From: a virus
DNA: 64,000 bases
IMG/VR virus record: IMGVR_UViG_3300031576_000008
Coordinates: 32,001 to 96,000 of that record
Reading direction: 5' to 3' (one strand)
The notes beneath the pieces are model-generated. The model was not told the DNA's origin and did not search any database. It saw only the letters and a program-made list of their open reading frames with translations. Both the position numbers and the translations under genes were made by a program. Below, in pieces: positions 1,727 to 57,113 of the stretch. How positions within the stretch are numbered: position 1 is the stretch's first letter; every line of letters begins with the position of its first letter.

Positions 1727-3343
1727 TTATTGCCAGCGGGTCGGAATGTGCGCATCGAGATCGGTGCCATTGCGCTTCGCATTCTTGCATGGCTTACAGT
1801 ACTTTGGCGTCCTGAAGTCGCCGAACTTCTCGAACAGCCACTGCTTCTCCCCCTTGGTGAACACGAAGTTCGTCCCGCACTCGAAGCAGACGCAGCTCTC
1901 GTCTTCCAGAGACCCGCGCATCTGGATCGCGATCTTCCGATAGGGGACGTCGCCAAGCGCAGACCACGCGAGCCCGTCCCATTCCTCTGAAGTGAAGATC
2001 CCCTTCGGGAGTGGCTTGGAGGGGAGGCCCGCCTTCTTGAGGCGGTCGCAGATTTCCTGTTGGGCAACAGCATCCCAAAGACGGCCCGGCATGAGACTCT
2101 TCTGCAGCTTGAGCTGATCGGGCATGAGTTCGCATCTCTCGATCTTGCCGAGGACCTTCTTGAGGCTCTCCTCAGGCGACGAGACCGTAGAGGGCTGTTG
2201 TGCTCCATTCGATAGCGGCGTCACGGACTTCTGGACCAATGCTGGAGCCAGCCCAGCAAGGGGCACGTAATCGGTCGACAGCTTCTCGACAATGGACGGC
2301 TTGTGCTCAGGCTTGGGTTCGGGCGCGGAAGCCGGCTTCGGTGCTTCCTTTGCCGCAGGCTTCAGCTCGGCCTTCTTGGGAGCTTCCGGTGTAGTTGTAA
2401 GTTGAGGATTGATAGGTGTCAGCTGAATTGAGGGGTCACGCTCAATCACCCAGCCTTGGTTTTCCACCTCCTTGATGATCTTGAGCTCGATGGCGTTCTT
2501 CACCATCACCATCGCATACGTGCGGCTGGGAGGCTTGCCATCCAGCGTGAAGAATTCCTTGTACTTCTGAAGCTCCCCGGCAATCCCCCATTTGGAAGAG
2601 TGTGGCCCGGGATGCAAGCCGGCGATGAAAAGCGTCATCTTCGTCGCCTGCGACTCCTTCCGGGCCGGAGGCTTTGGAGCGGCTTCGGCATCGACCTTGT
2701 AGTCGGAGCCGGCCGCCAGACGCTTCCATGTCGTGCCGACGGTGTTGGCGAGGACGCCCTTGACCTTGAGCTCATCCGAGGCGATGAGCTTCGCCAGTGC
2801 CTGCTCCGAGATCGACAGCTCCTCGGCAAGGATGGGGAAAAGTTCAACCTGATCGAGTTTCTCATCAGGCAGCATAAGCGACTTCACGACCTCAATCAGG
2901 CGCTTGCCGTAGTTGGCCCAGAGATCTTCGACCGTCCAATCATCCGGAGAGTCCTTCTGGGACGGCGACTGGACTTCAGTCTTGGGCTTCTCGACCTCGG
3001 TCTCCTCGGCTTCTTCGACCTTCTCCGTCAGGTACGGATCGATGCGTTCCTTGAACTTGTTCTTGTCGTTGGAGTGTTTGATGAGTCCGGCAAGGATGTA
3101 GTTTCCTGTTTTGGATTGAATGAGTGGTAGTTTTCGCTTTTGGGCTATGTCCTGCGCAATTCGCCATGCAGGCCTGCCCAACCATCGCGTCAGCGCCACG
3201 ATGACCTCGACGTCGGGGGCAACGCTCGTCGGGAACGTCTCCCTTGTAGAGGGCACGTGGACGTAATCGATCGCCTCACGCACCACCTTGGGGATGTTCC
3301 GACGTTCGTCACCTCCAACGATGAGAGCCCGGATCTTTTGCAT
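1727..3343 (-). CDS. DUF2325-like N-terminal domain plus C-terminal zinc ribbon (zf-trcl-like)
   Basis: N-term ALIVGG...VIVALT...AQKRKLPLI; C-term CFECGTNFVFTKGEKQW...PKYCKPC. Confidence 0.65.
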   Translation of the reverse strand: MQKIRALIVGGDERRNIPKVVREAIDYVHVPSTRETFPTSVAPDVEVIVALTRWLGRPAWRIAQDIAQKRKLPLIQSKTGNYILAGLIKHSNDKNKFKERIDPYLTEKVEEAEETEVEKPKTEVQSPSQKDSPDDWTVEDLWANYGKRLIEVVKSLMLPDEKLDQVELFPILAEELSISEQALAKLIASDELKVKGVLANTVGTTWKRLAAGSDYKVDAEAAPKPPARKESQATKMTLFIAGLHPGPHSSKWGIAGELQKYKEFFTLDGKPPSRTYAMVMVKNAIELKIIKEVENQGWVIERDPSIQLTPINPQLTTTPEAPKKAELKPAAKEAPKPASAPEPKPEHKPSIVEKLSTDYVPLAGLAPALVQKSVTPLSNGAQQPSTVSSPEESLKKVLGKIERCELMPDQLKLQKSLMPGRLWDAVAQQEICDRLKKAGLPSKPLPKGIFTSEEWDGLAWSALGDVPYRKIAIQMRGSLEDESCVCFECGTNFVFTKGEKQWLFEKFGDFRTPKYCKPCKNAKRNGTDLDAHIPTRWQ

Positions 3344-3404
3344 GCGGTTCTCCTGTCCTCACGAGTTCACCTTATATCATGACACCGTGCCGGATGCCAT
3401 CAGT

Positions 3405-3635
3405 TCATGAGTCTTCCCCCGGGATGATGGGCTCGATCTCCTCCGTCGGCTCGCCGTCGAACAGCTTGGCCACCGGGATGATGACTGTCTTCCCCTCCTT
3501 TTCGAACTTCATGCACAGCACGGTAACGGTGTCGCGCGTGGTGACATAGCGGCATTCCATCAGGACGGTGCGGCCCTCGGCGAAAGCGTCCCGCAGGGCT
3601 TGGACGAGCTTCTTGTGATCATCGGGGATGGACAT
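3405..3635 (-). CDS. hypothetical protein (DUF6117-like)
   Basis: MSIPD...LMEC...PVAKLFDGEP resembles this small family; GAGG RBS. Confidence 0.55.
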   Translation of the reverse strand: MSIPDDHKKLVQALRDAFAEGRTVLMECRYVTTRDTVTVLCMKFEKEGKTVIIPVAKLFDGEPTEEIEPIIPGEDS

Positions 3636-3752
3636 GGTTCCCTCAGGTTAACACCTCGCGCGTTGGAGGTCTGCGCCTCCACCCAGCACAGGCACGGAAA
3701 GGTTAGTAACCCCACCAGCGCAAGGCCGCGCGAGGCGCGCTCATTCTAGACA

Positions 3753-3989
3753 TCATTGGCTCGCAACGCGCAGCGGTTCCTTGCTCGCCCGACGCGGGCG
3801 ATGGATGCGGTCCCATCGGGCCTGCTTGGATTGCCGATGAGCGTCTTCAAGGCAGTCGTCGCATAGCCGGATCACGATCCTGCCGGTCTTGATGACATTG
3901 ATCGAACTCACGGCCGAGTGCTGCTTCGTGCAGCCCATGCATCCGCCGACTTCGAAGATGCAGGCCCGGGTCACTACGATGTTAGACAT
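3753..3989 (-). CDS. small Cys-rich hypothetical protein
   Basis: CMGC and CDDC motifs; start uncertain. Confidence 0.45.
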   Translation of the reverse strand: MSNIVVTRACIFEVGGCMGCTKQHSAVSSINVIKTGRIVIRLCDDCLEDAHRQSKQARWDRIHRPRRASKEPLRVASQ

Positions 3990-11091: not shown

Positions 11092-11856
11092 CTAGGGGTT
11101 CGGCAGTCCATCCTTCTTGATCTGCTCCAGTAGATACTCGTCGTAGATCTTCCCGGTCGGGAGCTCCTCACAAACCAAGGTCATGCGCCGGGAGACCGTG
11201 ACCTCCTTCTTCAGCTTGGGATTGAATCCTTTCTTCAGGGTGCTGGCCCAATGGATGCCGGTCCCGTTGCGCTGCCATGCCGGCAGACGCGCGAAGTTGA
11301 CTCCGCGCTTGAAGAGAAGCTCGTTTTTGAAATGCGGCCCCTTGTTGAGCAGTTCCTTCGACGCGGCCGCCGCAGATTTTCCCTCGTTCCGGAGCATCCA
11401 GTAGGCCCAGCCATTGAGCGCGCAGCGTGCCGCATCCGCCTGACGCCAGCGGAAGTAATCCACGACCTGCTGATCCCCGATGCCCAGCCAGATGCGGCTG
11501 TCGAACTCGAGGGCGCAGTGCATCTGAAGCGTCATCTGCGAGGTCGCGATCGCGGCCGAGATCGACACGAGCTTCTCGACTTCCCTGTCGAACAGGTCGG
11601 CGTTCCGCCGCAGGAGCACCGAGATCTCGTCGCTTTCCGTGTAGGCATAGAGGCCCGAGAGCTTCTGAAGCAGGACGTTGGCCGTCTCCACCATCATGCG
11701 ATGGAAGCGGTCGTCGAAGGGCTTCTCCATCGTCTCCGTCAGCTTGCTGAAGCTGCGGCCATCCACCCGGATGACGATGTACGCGTCGTCGATCGCACGC
11801 AGGGAATGGAAGTATTCGCCCAGACGCATCTTGGCCTCGAACAGGTCGGGATTCAT
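11092..11856 (-). CDS. thg1: tRNA(His) guanylyltransferase Thg1-like 3'-5' polymerase
   Basis: RVDGRSFSK, KPFD, YTESDEIS, FDSR, YFRWRQ.DA.R; AGGAG RBS before MNPDLFE. Confidence 0.92.
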   Translation of the reverse strand: MNPDLFEAKMRLGEYFHSLRAIDDAYIVIRVDGRSFSKLTETMEKPFDDRFHRMMVETANVLLQKLSGLYAYTESDEISVLLRRNADLFDREVEKLVSISAAIATSQMTLQMHCALEFDSRIWLGIGDQQVVDYFRWRQADAARCALNGWAYWMLRNEGKSAAAASKELLNKGPHFKNELLFKRGVNFARLPAWQRNGTGIHWASTLKKGFNPKLKKEVTVSRRMTLVCEELPTGKIYDEYLLEQIKKDGLPNP

Positions 11857-11930
11857 GGATGATCTCCTAGAGGAAGCCCCGGGCCCGTTGGGGGCGGGCC
11901 CGGGGCAATTGAGAGAGGGAACTAGCTTGG

Positions 11931-13022
11931 TTAGGCCCCGGCGAGGATCTTCTCCATCGGGGTCGCGAGGACCTTCGCGCCGGCGTCCTCGTACATGTTC
12001 TTGTCGTCGTCGGACAGGTTCTCCCCGTGGACCTGATACGTGACCGCCTGCACGAGACCATAGCGCGTGAAGTCCTTGTCCTTGATGAACTTCTCGCGGA
12101 TCCTGTCGATGGCGCTCTTGGGCAGCTCCGCCAGCTCGACAACCGCCTCGACGGCCTTGACCGGATCGGTGACCTCCTCCTTTTTCGCACCATTCAACTT
12201 GGCGATCACTTCCTCGAACTTCGCGGGATCGAAGGCCGTCCGGATGATGTCGCGGACCTTTCTCCACGTGAGATTGTCGTCCGCTTTCTTAGTGTCGTCC
12301 GACATCCAGCCCTCTTCCTCGATCTTGCGACCGAGGTGGATCTTGGTCAGGCCCTCATCCCAGACATTGAGGTTCCAGCACACGTAGCGAAGCGTCGCCG
12401 GACGCACCTTGAGCTTGCCCTTGCCCGTCTCGGAATTGCCGATCGAGATGGCGGCCACGTGCCGGTCTCCGGCTTCCCACTTGTATCCCGGGCGGTCTTC
12501 CTTGACCTCGCCGGTGATGCCCGGCGCAACGGCGTAGATCCGGAACTCATCATCGGAGAGCCGGGCCTCCCAGATCTCCGCCTTCACTTTCTCGAGCTCC
12601 TCGACCGAGACCATGAAGAGGTCGAAGTTGTCGAGCGTCTTGTAGCTGTTGGACAGGACCGCGCGCACGCGCCCGTCCAGCGTCCGCACCATCCGCTTCT
12701 GGGGGTCGGTGTGCAGGAGGTGCGTCGCGAAATGGGCGAGCTCCTCGCGGTTCTTGGGATTCGTCTCGACCCGGCTCCAGAAATCGAGCGGGAAGCGCAT
12801 CGACTCCGCCAGCTGCGCGCGGCCGGTGCGCGTGAATCCGTAGACCTGCTTGTCCTTGTCCTCCACGTCGAACGTGAAGACGAGCTCGTCGTCGGCGACC
12901 TTGAGCCTCATCTTGCGGGTGTCGCCGACGTAGTCCTTCGACGTCTTCTTGCGGCGCTCGATCTCGGTCATGATCCTGCCGATGCGCTCGCGATCGAACG
13001 TGAGTCCTGCCATGTCGACCAT
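11931..13022 (-). CDS. DUF932/DUF945-like phage protein
   Basis: RAVLSNSY..LDN, IGNSETG.G, R.VC.N motifs. Confidence 0.75.
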   Translation of the reverse strand: MVDMAGLTFDRERIGRIMTEIERRKKTSKDYVGDTRKMRLKVADDELVFTFDVEDKDKQVYGFTRTGRAQLAESMRFPLDFWSRVETNPKNREELAHFATHLLHTDPQKRMVRTLDGRVRAVLSNSYKTLDNFDLFMVSVEELEKVKAEIWEARLSDDEFRIYAVAPGITGEVKEDRPGYKWEAGDRHVAAISIGNSETGKGKLKVRPATLRYVCWNLNVWDEGLTKIHLGRKIEEEGWMSDDTKKADDNLTWRKVRDIIRTAFDPAKFEEVIAKLNGAKKEEVTDPVKAVEAVVELAELPKSAIDRIREKFIKDKDFTRYGLVQAVTYQVHGENLSDDDKNMYEDAGAKVLATPMEKILAGA

Positions 13023-49362: not shown

Positions 49363-50256
49363 TTACTGCTGGAACTTCCTGATGTCCCGGCTGAGTGCGG
49401 CCTCGACTTCGGCCGGCGACGGATCCTTGGCGAGCTGTTCCTCCGGCCCCTTCAGGGCCTTCTCGATCTGCTTGGGCGACGGTTCTTTCTCCGTGACCAT
49501 CACGGACTGCGGGGCCTCGCGGATGACCGTGCTGGTCATCTTCTCCTCGGCCTCGGCGACTTCATCCTTGTCGAAGCCGTCCTCGAGCCTGAAGATCCGC
49601 TCGGCCCTCTCAGCGCCCTGAACGCGCAGCGAGAAGTCGTGACCGACCTTGACGGTCACATGCGATGGCGCGCCTTCGAGGTCGCCCGAGCGGCGAACCT
49701 CGAAGACATCGCCCGGCGCGACCACCAGAAGCGCCTCGCTCGAATAGCCGTTGTACGAGAAACTGCCCTTGCGATTGAACTCGATGAGCGACTCCCCGCG
49801 CGCCAGAACCGTGTTCTGCTTCGCGGGGACGATTATCGCGCGCCCACGCAGGCCGGGCTCCGCGACGAAGTGGATTCCGATCTTCTGTCCCCTCACCTCC
49901 TCCGTGCTCTCCTCCACCAGCACGAGGGTCTTCTTCTGGGTGACGAAGATGGAACCCTCGAACGGATTGTGTATGGCCAGCTTCTTGACGAACGGGTGCT
50001 CGTTGTTCGGGCCCAGCACGGCCGGACCCTTGCAGATTTCGCAGGGCTTCGCCCCGATGGGCTGCCCGTCGTTGTCGCAGAGGTGCTCGCGCATGACCGA
50101 GAGCAGCCTCATGAACTTCTGCCCAACGGCGACCCAAACCGACGCTCTCTTGAGCGTCCCCACCTCGAAGTGAGGATACGGCAGCACTTCGATCGGGATG
50201 CCCGGACCACAGTTGACGATCCCGGACTTCGTCAGGACAGCGTTGTAGAGCTTCAT
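49363..50256 (-). CDS. hypothetical protein
   Basis: 297 aa, GGAG RBS. Confidence 0.6.
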   Translation of the reverse strand: MKLYNAVLTKSGIVNCGPGIPIEVLPYPHFEVGTLKRASVWVAVGQKFMRLLSVMREHLCDNDGQPIGAKPCEICKGPAVLGPNNEHPFVKKLAIHNPFEGSIFVTQKKTLVLVEESTEEVRGQKIGIHFVAEPGLRGRAIIVPAKQNTVLARGESLIEFNRKGSFSYNGYSSEALLVVAPGDVFEVRRSGDLEGAPSHVTVKVGHDFSLRVQGAERAERIFRLEDGFDKDEVAEAEEKMTSTVIREAPQSVMVTEKEPSPKQIEKALKGPEEQLAKDPSPAEVEAALSRDIRKFQQ

Positions 50257-50390
50257 CGTCTCTCCAGTTTCTTTGCCGCTAGGTTCGGCTGCCCCGGTCG
50301 CGGCGTAGACCTTAATGGGGCAGCGTCGATACCGATTTCCCCTACTGCTACATGTGCTCTTCGTGGCGTGATACTGCGTAGAGTCCGCTT

Positions 50391-50774
50391 CTAGACCTTC
50401 GCGGGCTGGAACTTCCCGGCGACGAGATCTTCGAGGTTCGTTGCGACCCTCGTTTCCTTCGTGCCGGCGTAGCGGGCGACCTCGACTCCTTTCTCGTAGA
50501 AGATGAACGTCGGGATCATCTCGATCTTGAGCGTGTCGATGATCCAGAGATTCTTGTCGCAGTTGACCGTGTAGAACGCGACCAGCCCGAACTTCTGGTT
50601 GAGCCGCTCGAGCATCGGACCGGGCTGCTCTTGCAGATCCTGTTTCTGCTCCTGCACGGGAGCGATCTCAGTGCAGCCGCCTCACCACTTCGCGTAGAGG
50701 GTGAGCAGCGTCCAGCGGTTCATCCTCATGCGGTCCTCGAGGGTGTCCATCGTGATCGTGTGTGGAAGGAACAT
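50391..50774 (-). CDS. thioredoxin with in-frame UGA at the first active-site position (WUGGC); candidate selenoprotein
   Basis: AAGGAG RBS, ATG at 50774; LYAKW-TGA(50682-50684)-GGC...VNCD...IPTFIFY..G; hairpin 50652-50676. Confidence 0.8.
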
Positions 50775-50944
50775 TTTCTTCTCCTTTCTGCCATATGCTA
50801 GGCCTCGCTTGAGTGTGTGAACCGCTCACACTCCTCATCTCAAGCGGGCCATCTAGTGCCTTATAGTTAAATGACCAGCGGGCGGACGCCTTCCGTCAGC
50901 TTGCCGGCGCGCGCATCGGTGATGAAGCGCTCGATGGCCGTGAT

Positions 50945-51337
50945 CTAGTGCCAGAAGAGAACGACCTTGGTCTCCGGCTTGAGCCTCTTGATCCGCCGGA
51001 GGACGTCCTTGTTCCACTCGCTGAAACCATTGCAGTCCAGCTTCGCCAGCTCGCCAGCCGTCGAGTACGTCAGCGGCTCGCCGTACGGATCCTTCGTGAC
51101 GATGCCGGCCCGGCAGTCATCCGGACCCGGCTTGAAGACGCCGAACGGCAAGTGCGTCTCGAGGATCCGGAACTTGACCTGTTCCGGCAGCGGCTTCGGC
51201 TTACAGGCCTGCTTCACCTGCTCTTCGCACATGACCGTGTTGTCGATCTTGGCGAAGAGCTGGTAGTCCCGACTCAGTCCCCAACCCACACTCTTCTTCT
51301 CGGCCCCCAGCGGGTACAACGTCAAATCCATGCCCAT
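50945..51337 (-). CDS. hypothetical phage protein
   Basis: MG.DL...DPYG.PL...VVLFWH. Confidence 0.6.
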   Translation of the reverse strand: MGMDLTLYPLGAEKKSVGWGLSRDYQLFAKIDNTVMCEEQVKQACKPKPLPEQVKFRILETHLPFGVFKPGPDDCRAGIVTKDPYGEPLTYSTAGELAKLDCNGFSEWNKDVLRRIKRLKPETKVVLFWH

Positions 51338-53059: not shown

Positions 53060-54319
53060 CTAAACCGATCTCAAGATCCGGTCCCAGTTGTGCTTCATCA
53101 CATCCGGTCCGACAGCGACGAAGTTGAGATTGCGGGAATCGAAGATGAGCTTCGCGGCCTCATGCACCTCCTTGGGCGTCACCGCCCGATTCATCATGAT
53201 CACGACGTCAGGGTCATGATCGAGCCCGTAGTCGAACTGGTACGTGGCCTTCCAAAGCGCCATGTCCTTGGCCCGTTCAAGCGACCGGATGAACTCGCCG
53301 ATCATCATCTCCTTGGCCCGGTCGACTTCCTCCCGTGTGACGCCCTTGTCGACGATCTTCTCCGTTTCCTTGAGGATCGCCTTTAAGGCCTTCGGAGCTT
53401 GGTGAGGAGAGGTGGACGTGTTCACCCGGAAGACACCCGTGTCCGGCAGGAAGGCCGTTTCAGCCCCGATCAAGTAAGCCAGTCCTTCGCGATCCCGCAC
53501 CTGTTCGAAGAGCCGCGATGACTGGCTTCCTCCAAGCACGACGGAGAGGACATTGATGGCGCGCCGCACCTCTTGCGAACATCCCCCGGTGGTGACGCCG
53601 ACCGTGAAGTGGGTCTGCTCTAATCTCTTCGTCTTCAGGCTCGTCTGGAAGCCGTTCTGATTGTTCCTGAAGTGCTCGAGATGCCGCCTTGGTCCGATCT
53701 GGATCTTGGTGAACTGGCGCACGGCCTGTCGCTCGATCTGCTCGTCGATGTCGCCGGCAATCGAGACGATGATGTTGGTCCCCGAGTAATAGGTGCGCCA
53801 CCAGTCGACCATCTGCTTATGGCGGAGTGCCGAGATGCTCTTGATCGATCCGCCGATTGGGAGCGCCAGCGGGTTGGGGTCGTAGACGAGCTTGTGCCAG
53901 AGATTCTGAAGGATCCATTCCGGCTCATCTTCCTCGGAGCGGATCTCCTCGAGGATGACCTTGCGCTCCATTTCGAACTCGTCCTTCGGAAAGCGCGGCT
54001 CGATCGTCATGCTGGTGATGATGTCGAGCGCCGACTTCACCTTGTCGGCCTTGGTAACGATGAAGTACCACGTCCGGTCGATCTCCGTGAACGCGTTGAA
54101 GTCCGCGCCCATCCGGTCGAGCATCCTCGAAACTTCCGTGGACTTGGGGAACTGCCGGCATCCCTTGAAGCACATGTGCTCCAAGAAATGCGAGACACCC
54201 GACGTCTCTTTCTCCTCGTATCTCGAACCGGTCTTGACCATGACGACGATGGCCACCGCCCGCGTTCCCGACATGGGCGTCGTGATCAACGTCAGCATAT
54301 TGGAAAGGTTGTGTCGCAT
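53060..54319 (-). CDS. M16 family (pitrilysin-like) zinc peptidase
   Basis: GSRYE, GVSHFLEHM.FKG, NAFT, E..VILEE, SSRLF.QVR...GLAY. Confidence 0.93.
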   Translation of the reverse strand: MRHNLSNMLTLITTPMSGTRAVAIVVMVKTGSRYEEKETSGVSHFLEHMCFKGCRQFPKSTEVSRMLDRMGADFNAFTEIDRTWYFIVTKADKVKSALDIITSMTIEPRFPKDEFEMERKVILEEIRSEEDEPEWILQNLWHKLVYDPNPLALPIGGSIKSISALRHKQMVDWWRTYYSGTNIIVSIAGDIDEQIERQAVRQFTKIQIGPRRHLEHFRNNQNGFQTSLKTKRLEQTHFTVGVTTGGCSQEVRRAINVLSVVLGGSQSSRLFEQVRDREGLAYLIGAETAFLPDTGVFRVNTSTSPHQAPKALKAILKETEKIVDKGVTREEVDRAKEMMIGEFIRSLERAKDMALWKATYQFDYGLDHDPDVVIMMNRAVTPKEVHEAAKLIFDSRNLNFVAVGPDVMKHNWDRILRSV

Positions 54320-55388: not shown

Positions 55389-55572
55389 GTTTCTCCTCCT
55401 TGCTCACGATCTTCTGCGCGTCCTCTTCGCAGTAAGGCTTTCCGCCCTGCTCGAACATTGGGACGCGGACGCCGTCCTTCATGAAGACGGCATCGAACAT
55501 GCACAAAGGGCCGTTGCAGACGGTGCAACGGCCCAAGCCCGACACATCCAGATCACAATCTTTGCACTTCAT
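55381..55572 (-). CDS. small zinc-finger protein
   Basis: CKDC and CTVC. Confidence 0.5.
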   Translation of the reverse strand: MKCKDCDLDVSGLGRCTVCNGPLCMFDAVFMKDGVRVPMFEQGGKPYCEEDAQKIVSKEEKHV

Positions 55573-57113
55573 CAGTTCCCTTTCTCCTTGAGGGAGCGCA
55601 GTCGTTCCGTGAACAGCTTGCGCGGGGGATAGTCGGCGGGCGCGATCTTGAGGAGCATCTCAATATCAGAGATGGCCCCCTTGACGTCGCCACGGATGGA
55701 CCGGATCTGGGCCCGGTTGCCATAGGCACCCAGCGCCTTCGGATTAAGCTCGATCATCCGATTGAAGTCGGGCAATGCCCCGTCATAGTTCTTCATCTGC
55801 ATGTAGGCCGTGGCTCGTGCGCCCAGCGCATCTGTCGAATTCGGGTCGATCTTGAGCGCGTCGCTGGCGTCCTCGATGGCGGCGATGTAATCGAGCTTGT
55901 AGACCTTCGCGACAGCCCGATTGGCGAGTGCGGTGACGTTGGTTGGATCGGACTTCATCGCTGCGCTGTAATGCTCGATGGCGCGATCGTAGTTGCCGTT
56001 CTGCATGCAGACCATCGCCTCGTAGATGGACTTCTGCGCGTCCTTCCGGCGGGACTCCTCGGCGGCGCGCTTCTTCTCGTCCTCCGCACGCTTGGTCTCC
56101 TCCGCGCGCTTTTCGCCCTCTCGCTTGGCCTTCTCATCGGATGCCAGCCGGTCACGCTCCACCTTCTCGTGGGCGGTCTTGAAGCCTTCCTCGGCCTTCT
56201 TCTTCTGCCAGATGATGATGCCTACGGCCGCAAGAGGAAGAAGTGCACCCAGCACCACGGCCGTGATCAGGTTCCTCCGGCGGAACATGAACTTCTTGGC
56301 GCGATAGATGACGCTTGGAGCGTGAGCGAGGATCGGCTCCCCCTTGAGCCAGCGGTCAAGATCGGCGGCAAGTCCGCCAGCCGTCTGATAACGCGCCCGC
56401 TTGTCCTTTTCGAGGCACTTCATCACGATTGTCTGAAGCTCGGAGTCCACATCCTCGATGGGCTGGGGGTCGTCTTCCTCGACCCTTTTCAGGGTTTCGT
56501 AGATCGTCTTGCCCTTGAATGGACTCTGGCCCGCCAGAAGCTCGTAGAGTGTCACACCGAGCGAATAGACATCCGTCCGCTCATCGACCTTCTCCCCACG
56601 GGCCTGCTCCGGCGACATGTAGGACGGCGTGCCTACGATCAGGCCGGAGGCGGAGAGATTGGATGCGCCCTTGGTAGAACGTGCGAGTCCGAAGTCCATG
56701 ACATAGACGCGGTGTTTCCGATTCTTCTCCTCGACCATGATGTTGGCGGGCTTGATGTCGCGATGGATGACGCCTTCCCTGTGCGCGAAGGCGATGGCCC
56801 GCGCCGCGTTCATCATGAGCCGGACGAGCAGCTTGACATCGCCTCCATGAATGATGTAACCGTTGATGTACTGCATCGCGATGTAGTGGCGTCCATGGTC
56901 CTCGCCGATTTCGTAGACTGACGCGATGTTGGGGTGATTGAGCTTGGCGGCCAGCTGCGCCTCGCGGTGGAAACGGGCCAGCTGCTCCTCGTCGAAACCC
57001 TTCATGAATTTGAGGGCGACCCGACGGTCGAGCTCCGTGTCATGAGCAAGCCAGACCTCGCCCATGCCGCCTTCGCCAAGCTTTTCCTCGAGCATGAACT
57101 TTCCGAGGTTCAT
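55572..57113 (-). CDS. Hanks-type Ser/Thr kinase with TM segment and TPR repeats
   Basis: LGEGGMGEVW, VALK, HRDIKPAN, DFGLA, GTPSYMSPEQ; TM; TPRs. Confidence 0.93.
   Translation of the reverse strand: MNLGKFMLEEKLGEGGMGEVWLAHDTELDRRVALKFMKGFDEEQLARFHREAQLAAKLNHPNIASVYEIGEDHGRHYIAMQYINGYIIHGGDVKLLVRLMMNAARAIAFAHREGVIHRDIKPANIMVEEKNRKHRVYVMDFGLARSTKGASNLSASGLIVGTPSYMSPEQARGEKVDERTDVYSLGVTLYELLAGQSPFKGKTIYETLKRVEEDDPQPIEDVDSELQTIVMKCLEKDKRARYQTAGGLAADLDRWLKGEPILAHAPSVIYRAKKFMFRRRNLITAVVLGALLPLAAVGIIIWQKKKAEEGFKTAHEKVERDRLASDEKAKREGEKRAEETKRAEDEKKRAAEESRRKDAQKSIYEAMVCMQNGNYDRAIEHYSAAMKSDPTNVTALANRAVAKVYKLDYIAAIEDASDALKIDPNSTDALGARATAYMQMKNYDGALPDFNRMIELNPKALGAYGNRAQIRSIRGDVKGAISDIEMLLKIAPADYPPRKLFTERLRSLKEKGN

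Follow-up and report, generated by a model that had tools for sequence, protein, structure and literature searches.

The DNA analysed in this study is a window of 64 kb (the whole stretch of 64,000 nt) from a large uncultured cave/soil phage, represented by an IMG/VR virus record (G000) of 105,993 bp that is ~65% complete, encodes a DNA polymerase, a helicase and a primase, and has 24 tRNA calls by ARAGORN. On the minus strand of the window there is an ORF for a thioredoxin that is interrupted by one in-frame TGA (Table 1). It had been predicted from the letters of this stretch that a ribosome-binding site and an ATG at 50774 open 30 in-frame codons which end in a TGA exactly at the nucleophilic cysteine of a WCxxC motif, and all of these elements can be read in the sequence, where the local motif is K-W-[TGA]-G-G-C and 96 in-frame codons follow the TGA. 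The 88-residue C-terminal ORF of that prediction was also found (50391..50657, with a GTG start), in the same frame as a 30-residue ORF at 50682..50774. Public gene calls split the gene in a comparable way, into products of 30 (P0037), 74 (P0002) and 88 residues (P0153, a Logan/ENA call). The 30 codons 5' of the TGA have a GC3 of 0.93 and those after it 0.73–0.91, versus 0.57 upstream of the ATG, and since GC3 is high on both sides of the TGA, both halves are evidently coding and in one frame. A screen for same-frame ORF pairs was too noisy to use because the antisense frames are also high in GC3.

Table 1. Features of the thioredoxin locus, in coordinates of the window.
Feature	Position	Strand	Details
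Shine-Dalgarno-like AAGGAG	50781..50786	-	6 nt 5' of the ATG (50774-50772); from sequence
Thioredoxin ORF	50391..50774	-	127 codons including one in-frame TGA, then TAG stop (50393-50391); translation with the TGA read through
In-frame TGA, codon 31	50682..50684	-	proposed Sec codon; nucleophilic position of W-C-x-x-C
TGC, codon 34	50673..50675	-	resolving Cys of the proposed U-G-G-C; C34 nearly invariant in the 24-thioredoxin alignment
Pro88 codon (I-P-T)	50511..50513	-	cis-proline of the thioredoxin fold; P88 invariant in both homolog alignments (comparison with P0004; 24 thioredoxins)
Q/E-rich insertion, residues ~38-52	50619..50663	-	splits helix alpha2, immediately past the active site; its codons lie in the hairpin region
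First-named hairpin, CUGCAC-U-GAG-AUCG-CUC-CC-GUGCAG	50652..50676	-	6 bp + 3 bp, loop AUCG; minimum free energy (MFE) fold only in contexts of <=55 nt
Preferred SECIS candidate, GCUCC-CGUGCA-GGAGC	50648..50663	-	5-bp stem, 6-nt loop (50658-50653) with G-U as its second and third bases; spacing from the UGA 23 nt
Extended irregular stem-loop	50623..50678	-	MFE structure of 60-66 nt (-23.6 kcal/mol); its tip is the hairpin 50663-50648

Two ways of accounting for the second half of the gene were rejected. A separate, functional C-terminal fragment of 88 residues is unlikely, since no Shine-Dalgarno-like sequence precedes either GTG 50657 or ATG 50615 and since such a fragment would be missing the active site. 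Frameshifting past the TGA is excluded because the second cysteine and all of the downstream homology continue in the zero frame. A search of 50200–51000 for a sigma-70-like promoter or an intrinsic terminator found none; a 7-bp hairpin (GAGUGUG...CACACUC, 50811–50833, minus strand) lies between the upstream gene and the ribosome-binding site of the thioredoxin gene.

The identity of the read-through product is well supported by both sequence and predicted structure. It matched the Pfam thioredoxin family PF00085 with E=1.8e-14 and 54 bits (cut-off 23.5) over residues 10–111, a match that spans the TGA, and 90 solved thioredoxin or PDI chains matched it at E<=1e-3. The AlphaFold2 model of the read-through product has a mean pLDDT of 86.8, a pTM of 0.82 and thioredoxin topology, its predicted elements occurring in the order H9-18, E21-27, H53-61, E65-71, H76-81, E89-94, E97-103 and H107-118, in agreement with the beta-alpha-beta-alpha-beta-alpha-beta-beta-alpha fold expected of a thioredoxin. 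When aligned with 24 thioredoxins, the columns of W30, [TGA]31, C34 and P88 are invariant or nearly so, the TGA taking the place of the first cysteine. The insertion just after the active site was modelled at low confidence (pLDDT of 62 for residues 41–50), with no helix in residues 35–52, and in alignments canonical thioredoxins have a gap of 14 residues at this point and the cysteine-form homolog P0004 a gap of 7 residues. An RNA element that shaped the coding sequence would fit with such an insertion, although this fit is not proof of one.

The TGA itself is a genuine codon. Reads with TGC or TGT at this position would have counted against the original prediction, and neither was seen: the locus has a depth of ~38x in the probable source run, with zero variants. 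Contigs of differing length in three collections (JGI/IMG, ENA and Logan) carry the same truncated products. In addition, a soil contig of 349 nt (X5) that spans the TGA codon differs from the window by nine substitutions, none of which is T>G or T>A at 50682, and its codon is therefore neither TGC nor TGT.

Elsewhere in this phage TGA is a normal stop, just as had been claimed, since 55 of 155 high-GC3 ORFs and 38 of 127 crude gene calls terminate in it. Taking TGA as sense lowered the coding coverage from 0.76 to 0.65, and ARAGORN identified no UCA-anticodon (suppressor) tRNA in the 105,993-bp record. The genome has 35 TGAs in an open context, and only that of the thioredoxin gene falls in a recognisable domain and motif. 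Genome-wide reassignment of TGA was excluded on four grounds, namely its use at the end of about one third of the genes, the drop in coverage, the lack of a UCA-anticodon tRNA and the lack of any other in-frame TGA in a recognisable domain. As a separate observation, the commonest stop in the crude gene calls is TAG (55 of 127, compared with 38 for TGA and 34 for TAA), which is unexpected at the 59.7% G+C of the whole record; taking TAG as sense produced fewer, longer ORFs at equal coverage, and no CUA-anticodon tRNA was found.

The family to which this thioredoxin belongs is tiny, with three known lineages. The protein P0004 (122 residues, 53% identical over its full length) reads W-C-A-G-C, with its first cysteine aligned with the TGA. 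An alignment of homologs at this codon had been put forward as a check on the original prediction, and it returned cysteine both in P0004 and in the set of 24 thioredoxins, in which C31 is nearly invariant; the gene and its homologs accordingly have the UGA-to-cysteine alignment of a Sec/Cys pair. The other relative, P0003, is 80% identical and is encoded on a contig of 6,537 bp in run X2, which belongs to a different cave study. It was called as a protein of 82 residues that starts at the GTG equivalent to codon 40 of the window gene, the earliest start codon past the TGA, and the same GTG start is used in P0153, the gene call for the window phage. A full-length thioredoxin product of the X2 contig was absent from both protein databases searched.

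At the DNA level, the X2 contig has 127 mismatches to the window over 1,048 nt (~12% divergence) and 29 gap letters. Across the 384-nt ORF there is no frameshift and the sole indel is an in-frame deletion of 18 nt (~50628–50646), and in the adjacent intergenic stretch of 134 nt there are five indel events, four of them of 1 nt. From the start of the gene call, the intact frame and the lack of a full-length database product, we infer that X2 has retained the stop. Considered with X5, this suggests that the UGA and the frame on both sides of it have probably been kept in diverged relatives. Just upstream of the thioredoxin gene, 103 nt of the window (50848–50950) are replaced by 624 other letters in X2, and the window phage and the X2 phage differ here by an insertion or replacement polymorphism.

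Selection on the part of the gene downstream of the UGA was marginal when the window was compared with X2: the longest identical run had p=0.056, a test of site conservation gave no significant sign of purifying selection, and four of the five substitutions at the 3' end, among those listed, are non-synonymous. Additional relatives were sought by several routes. With blastn, the segment 49000–53000 had no match among 50,697 phage records. Scans of viral contigs with DNA and peptide patterns returned only L009, an unrelated thioredoxin of a low-GC phage with WCGPC; a pattern scan of metagenome contigs returned only secreted TlpA-like proteins with WCPPC (L007 and L008, 32% identical), and that of genome contigs returned nothing. 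Searches with neighbouring genes for syntenic phages also returned nothing, and a search for the N-terminal fragment of a relative returned only P0037 of the window itself.

The RNA that follows the UGA can form overlapping hairpins, and it is here that the original prediction was borne out in part. The SECIS-like hairpin it had named (50652–50676) exists and is the MFE structure of short contexts, but it does not conform to the rules of the bacterial SECIS (bSECIS) consensus for the G and for the spacing, which is 15 nt. That consensus has a loop of 3–9 nt, an upper stem of 4–16 bp, a G as the first or second base of the loop, usually as part of G[G/U], a distance of 16–37 nt from the UGA to the loop, and an MFE of <= -7.5 kcal/mol (PMC13188914). 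The hairpin 50663–50648 agrees with it in loop, stem, G, spacing and MFE. Its energy is -8.3 kcal/mol with dangling ends (-6.8 kcal/mol for the bare stem), its pair probability in the 66-nt ensemble is 0.95, and it was always the MFE structure when the 12–15 nt after the UGA were held single-stranded. As inferred from ribosome footprints, these 12–15 nt lie inside a ribosome that is decoding the UGA, and the first-named hairpin would be partly inside the ribosome during that step. The lower stem of the extended stem-loop is not conserved, because part of its 3' side (~50628–50646) is deleted in X2.

The fold of a 71-nt context (-23.2 kcal/mol) was not exceptional relative to shuffled sequences (z = -0.59). 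Among 2,500 random TGAs of the same genome, only 8.8% were followed by an equally good consensus-like hairpin, or 3.6% if G[G/U] was required, and about 6–8% of random TGA contexts (n=2,500) folded as stably, the value being 7.5% for the extended stem-loop. This background was tested under more than one definition of a hairpin, and the specificity of the hairpin evidence is moderate. A search of 50000–51200 with Rfam matched no family at E<=10, SECIS families included; no single model covers the known diversity of bacterial SECIS elements (PMC12013277).

The 105,993-bp phage record contains no tRNA-Sec, SelA, SelB or SelD, and insertion of Sec would therefore need a Sec-competent host. The best Rfam match to tRNA-Sec in the genome scored 37.7 bits, below the 47-bit cut-off, and is a long-arm tRNA-Tyr(GTA). 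An attempt to infer the host via an M16 peptidase of the phage found no relative, and there were no RNA runs among the sequencing runs listed for the locus. That peptidase, of the insulinase-like M16 family (53060–54319, minus strand), and a Ser/Thr protein kinase fused to TPR repeats (55572–57113, minus strand) are unusual cargo for a phage. The phage, whose tRNA array is large, also encodes in the window a protein of 391 residues (11092–12267, minus strand) that matched the PHROG for tRNA-His guanylyltransferase (Thg1-like) with E=2.2e-36. Far from the main tRNA array, ARAGORN called an 84-nt tRNA-Ser with the unusual anticodon ACT (3657–3740, minus strand) and an 80-nt tRNA-Lys(CTT) (2003–2082, plus strand); since Rfam matched no family at E<=0.1 over 1900–3900, both calls are doubtful or represent highly atypical tRNA-like sequences.

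A potential partner of the thioredoxin is encoded outside the window, in the same record. It is a class II (B12-dependent) ribonucleotide reductase (RNR) of 1,128 residues with an intein and a LAGLIDADG homing endonuclease (L016:1427-4813, minus strand, equivalent to G000:C1:17226-20612), whose Pfam matches are RNR_Alpha, RNR-II_ins_dom, Ribonuc_red_lgC, Intein_splicing and LAGLIDADG_3. Thioredoxin is the reductant of class II RNR. The only other protein with a thioredoxin fold, also outside the window (L015:1480-1809, minus strand, equivalent to G000:C1:12893-13222), has 109 residues and matched PF00085 with E=2.7e-9, yet has no CxxC and no cysteine at all. It is presumably redox-inactive for that reason, which leaves the UGA gene as the only candidate for a redox-active thioredoxin in ~106 kb.

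The gene probably encodes a thioredoxin of 127 residues with Sec as its nucleophilic active-site residue, in a W-U-G-G-C motif. Observed at the locus are a real UGA at the position of the catalytic cysteine, coding in one frame on both sides of it, a homolog in the cysteine form and a consensus-like hairpin. The phage Sec-thioredoxin of the original prediction is the best-supported reading, with the UGA aligned to cysteine and a SECIS-type hairpin at the right distance, but it is not proven; for a 'candidate' to be moved to 'selenoprotein', the UGA is required to be conserved in >=2 different sequences (PMC1088965).

Synthesis of the selenoprotein would begin with the infection of a Sec-competent host, whose SelB-GTP-Sec-tRNA(Sec) complex would bind the SECIS stem-loop inside the ORF, which is most likely the hairpin 50663–50648. 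SelB would then deliver Sec to the UGA (50684–50682) in competition with release factor 2. On reaching the UGA, the ribosome should open the more stable upstream pairing by melting its 5' arm, so that the consensus-like hairpin is exposed. The protein would serve as a disulfide reductant for the nucleotide metabolism of the phage, a role that is likely given the class II RNR, a thioredoxin-dependent enzyme, in the same genome. The proposal as a whole, in which the phage has a UxxC selenoprotein of its own, made by means of host SelB and tRNA-Sec, with a SECIS exposed only when the ribosome melts the competing hairpin, and in which this protein reduces the B12-dependent RNR of the phage, is in our judgement evenly poised.

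The main rival is a nonsense mutation that changed TGC or TGT to TGA in a recent ancestor of a small phage lineage, in which case the gene would be a pseudogene or decaying and the hairpin would be a chance feature of DNA with 60% G+C. Such a change takes a single base, and it would fit with cysteine in the more distant homolog P0004 and with the marginal selection on the downstream domain between the window and X2. However, of the single-base routes to a stop in the gene just 1 in 44 falls on codon 31, a chance of ~2% that a random stop mutation would land there. The case was chosen for having a stop at the cysteine, and chance matches are therefore expected somewhere in a large scan. The state of the gene also argues against decay, as the ORF has no second stop, the 30 upstream codons keep their ribosome-binding site, their ATG and a high GC3 (0.93), and the ~12% diverged X2 has no frameshift despite the five intergenic indel events. 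Likewise, the phage has an RNR that depends on thioredoxin, and no other thioredoxin found in it is potentially redox-active. On the other hand, SECIS-like hairpins follow 4–9% of random TGAs in this genome, the phage record is without Sec machinery, and the sampling of the family is very thin. On balance, we consider a nonsense mutation unlikely, but it is an explanation that has to be taken seriously.

Considerably less probable is read-through of the UGA independently of Sec, which would yield little full-length protein. The decoding tRNA would then be a near-cognate one, for Trp or Cys, or a suppressor whose gene lies in the ~1/3 of the genome that is missing from the record. Of the stop codons, UGA is the leakiest in bacteria, and the phage carries a tRNA-Trp(CCA) and a tRNA-Cys(GCA) among 24 ARAGORN tRNA calls in a record that is ~65% complete. 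Cysteine inserted at the UGA would restore a normal CxxC enzyme, whereas tryptophan at codon 31 would give an inactive one. Against any such decoding are the absence of a UCA-anticodon tRNA from 106 kb, the ~1/3 of genes that end in TGA and the degraded gene calls when TGA is sense; in addition, it would leave the consensus-like hairpin at SECIS spacing unexplained. As for a sequencing or assembly error at a true TGC or TGT, the IMG record alone is a single assembly, but the ~38x coverage with zero differences in the probable source run, the truncated products common to JGI/IMG, ENA and Logan, and the independent soil contig X5 without the substitutions required for a cysteine codon make it so improbable that it can be dismissed.

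A published selenoprotein gene of a bacteriophage was not found in the literature searched. Viral selenoproteins are known only from two poxviruses (PMC8310308), phages are never mentioned in a 2026 review of prokaryotic selenoproteomes, and a marine survey had few or no viral selenoprotein sequences. If the UGA of the thioredoxin gene encodes Sec, then catalogues of phage genes systematically miss genes of this kind, which they split into two "hypothetical" fragments. The host must then have the Sec trait, which would be a usable constraint for host prediction and would limit the host range to Sec-utilising bacteria, and the nucleotide metabolism and replication of the phage would be tied to the selenium available to its host. 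At ~130 codons and with a homolog in the cysteine form, the gene also represents a compact test case for the benefit of Sec to a viral redox enzyme.

The closest counterparts to a Sec-containing phage thioredoxin are bacterial. Sec-thioredoxins with UxxC and a SECIS inside the ORF are known in bacteria (PMC13188914, PMC1088965), and some with the UxxC arrangement have been validated experimentally (PMC13188914). The phage candidate resembles these proteins, such as the Treponema denticola thioredoxin of Kim et al., in its Pfam family (PF00085), in its proposed U in place of the N-terminal nucleophilic cysteine, in the stem-loop that follows the UGA inside the ORF and in the existence of homologs in the cysteine form. 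It differs in being carried by a phage, in its proposed W-U-G-G-C motif, which is not WCGPC-like, and in the 14-residue insertion after the active site; at <=35% identity to ordinary thioredoxins, the phage product represents a divergent subfamily. The candidate SECIS is similar to the E. coli fdhF-type bSECIS (bSECISearch; PMC13188914, Fig. 2) in being a stem-loop right after the UGA with a small apical loop containing G-U and an upper stem of 5 bp. It is different in that its loop is CGUGCA rather than GGUC, it has no obvious bulged U, and it overlaps a competing hairpin.

Among phages there are thioredoxin and glutaredoxin genes that serve the RNR of the phage, as in the case of nrdC of T4. 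The products of such genes and ordinary phage thioredoxins with WCGPC, such as that of L009, are, like the product of the window gene, small reductants with a thioredoxin fold in genomes that encode an RNR, but they use cysteine, L009 reading WCGPC with TGT. Genes for tRNA-Sec have been predicted in Basilisk-like Bacillus phages, in a paper that reports no selenoprotein gene (PMC6145125); this is a hint in the literature at an interaction of phages with the Sec system. The record of the window phage has a candidate selenoprotein gene and no tRNA-Sec. The viral precedents are the glutathione peroxidase selenoproteins of the poxviruses molluscum contagiosum and fowlpox, the SECIS of the latter being located in the coding region (PMC8310308). 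Those genes and the selenoprotein proposed for the phage are alike in being encoded by a virus and in needing the Sec machinery of the host, and they differ in that the poxviruses have eukaryotic hosts, depend on a eukaryotic SECIS and SBP2 system, and encode selenoproteins of another family.
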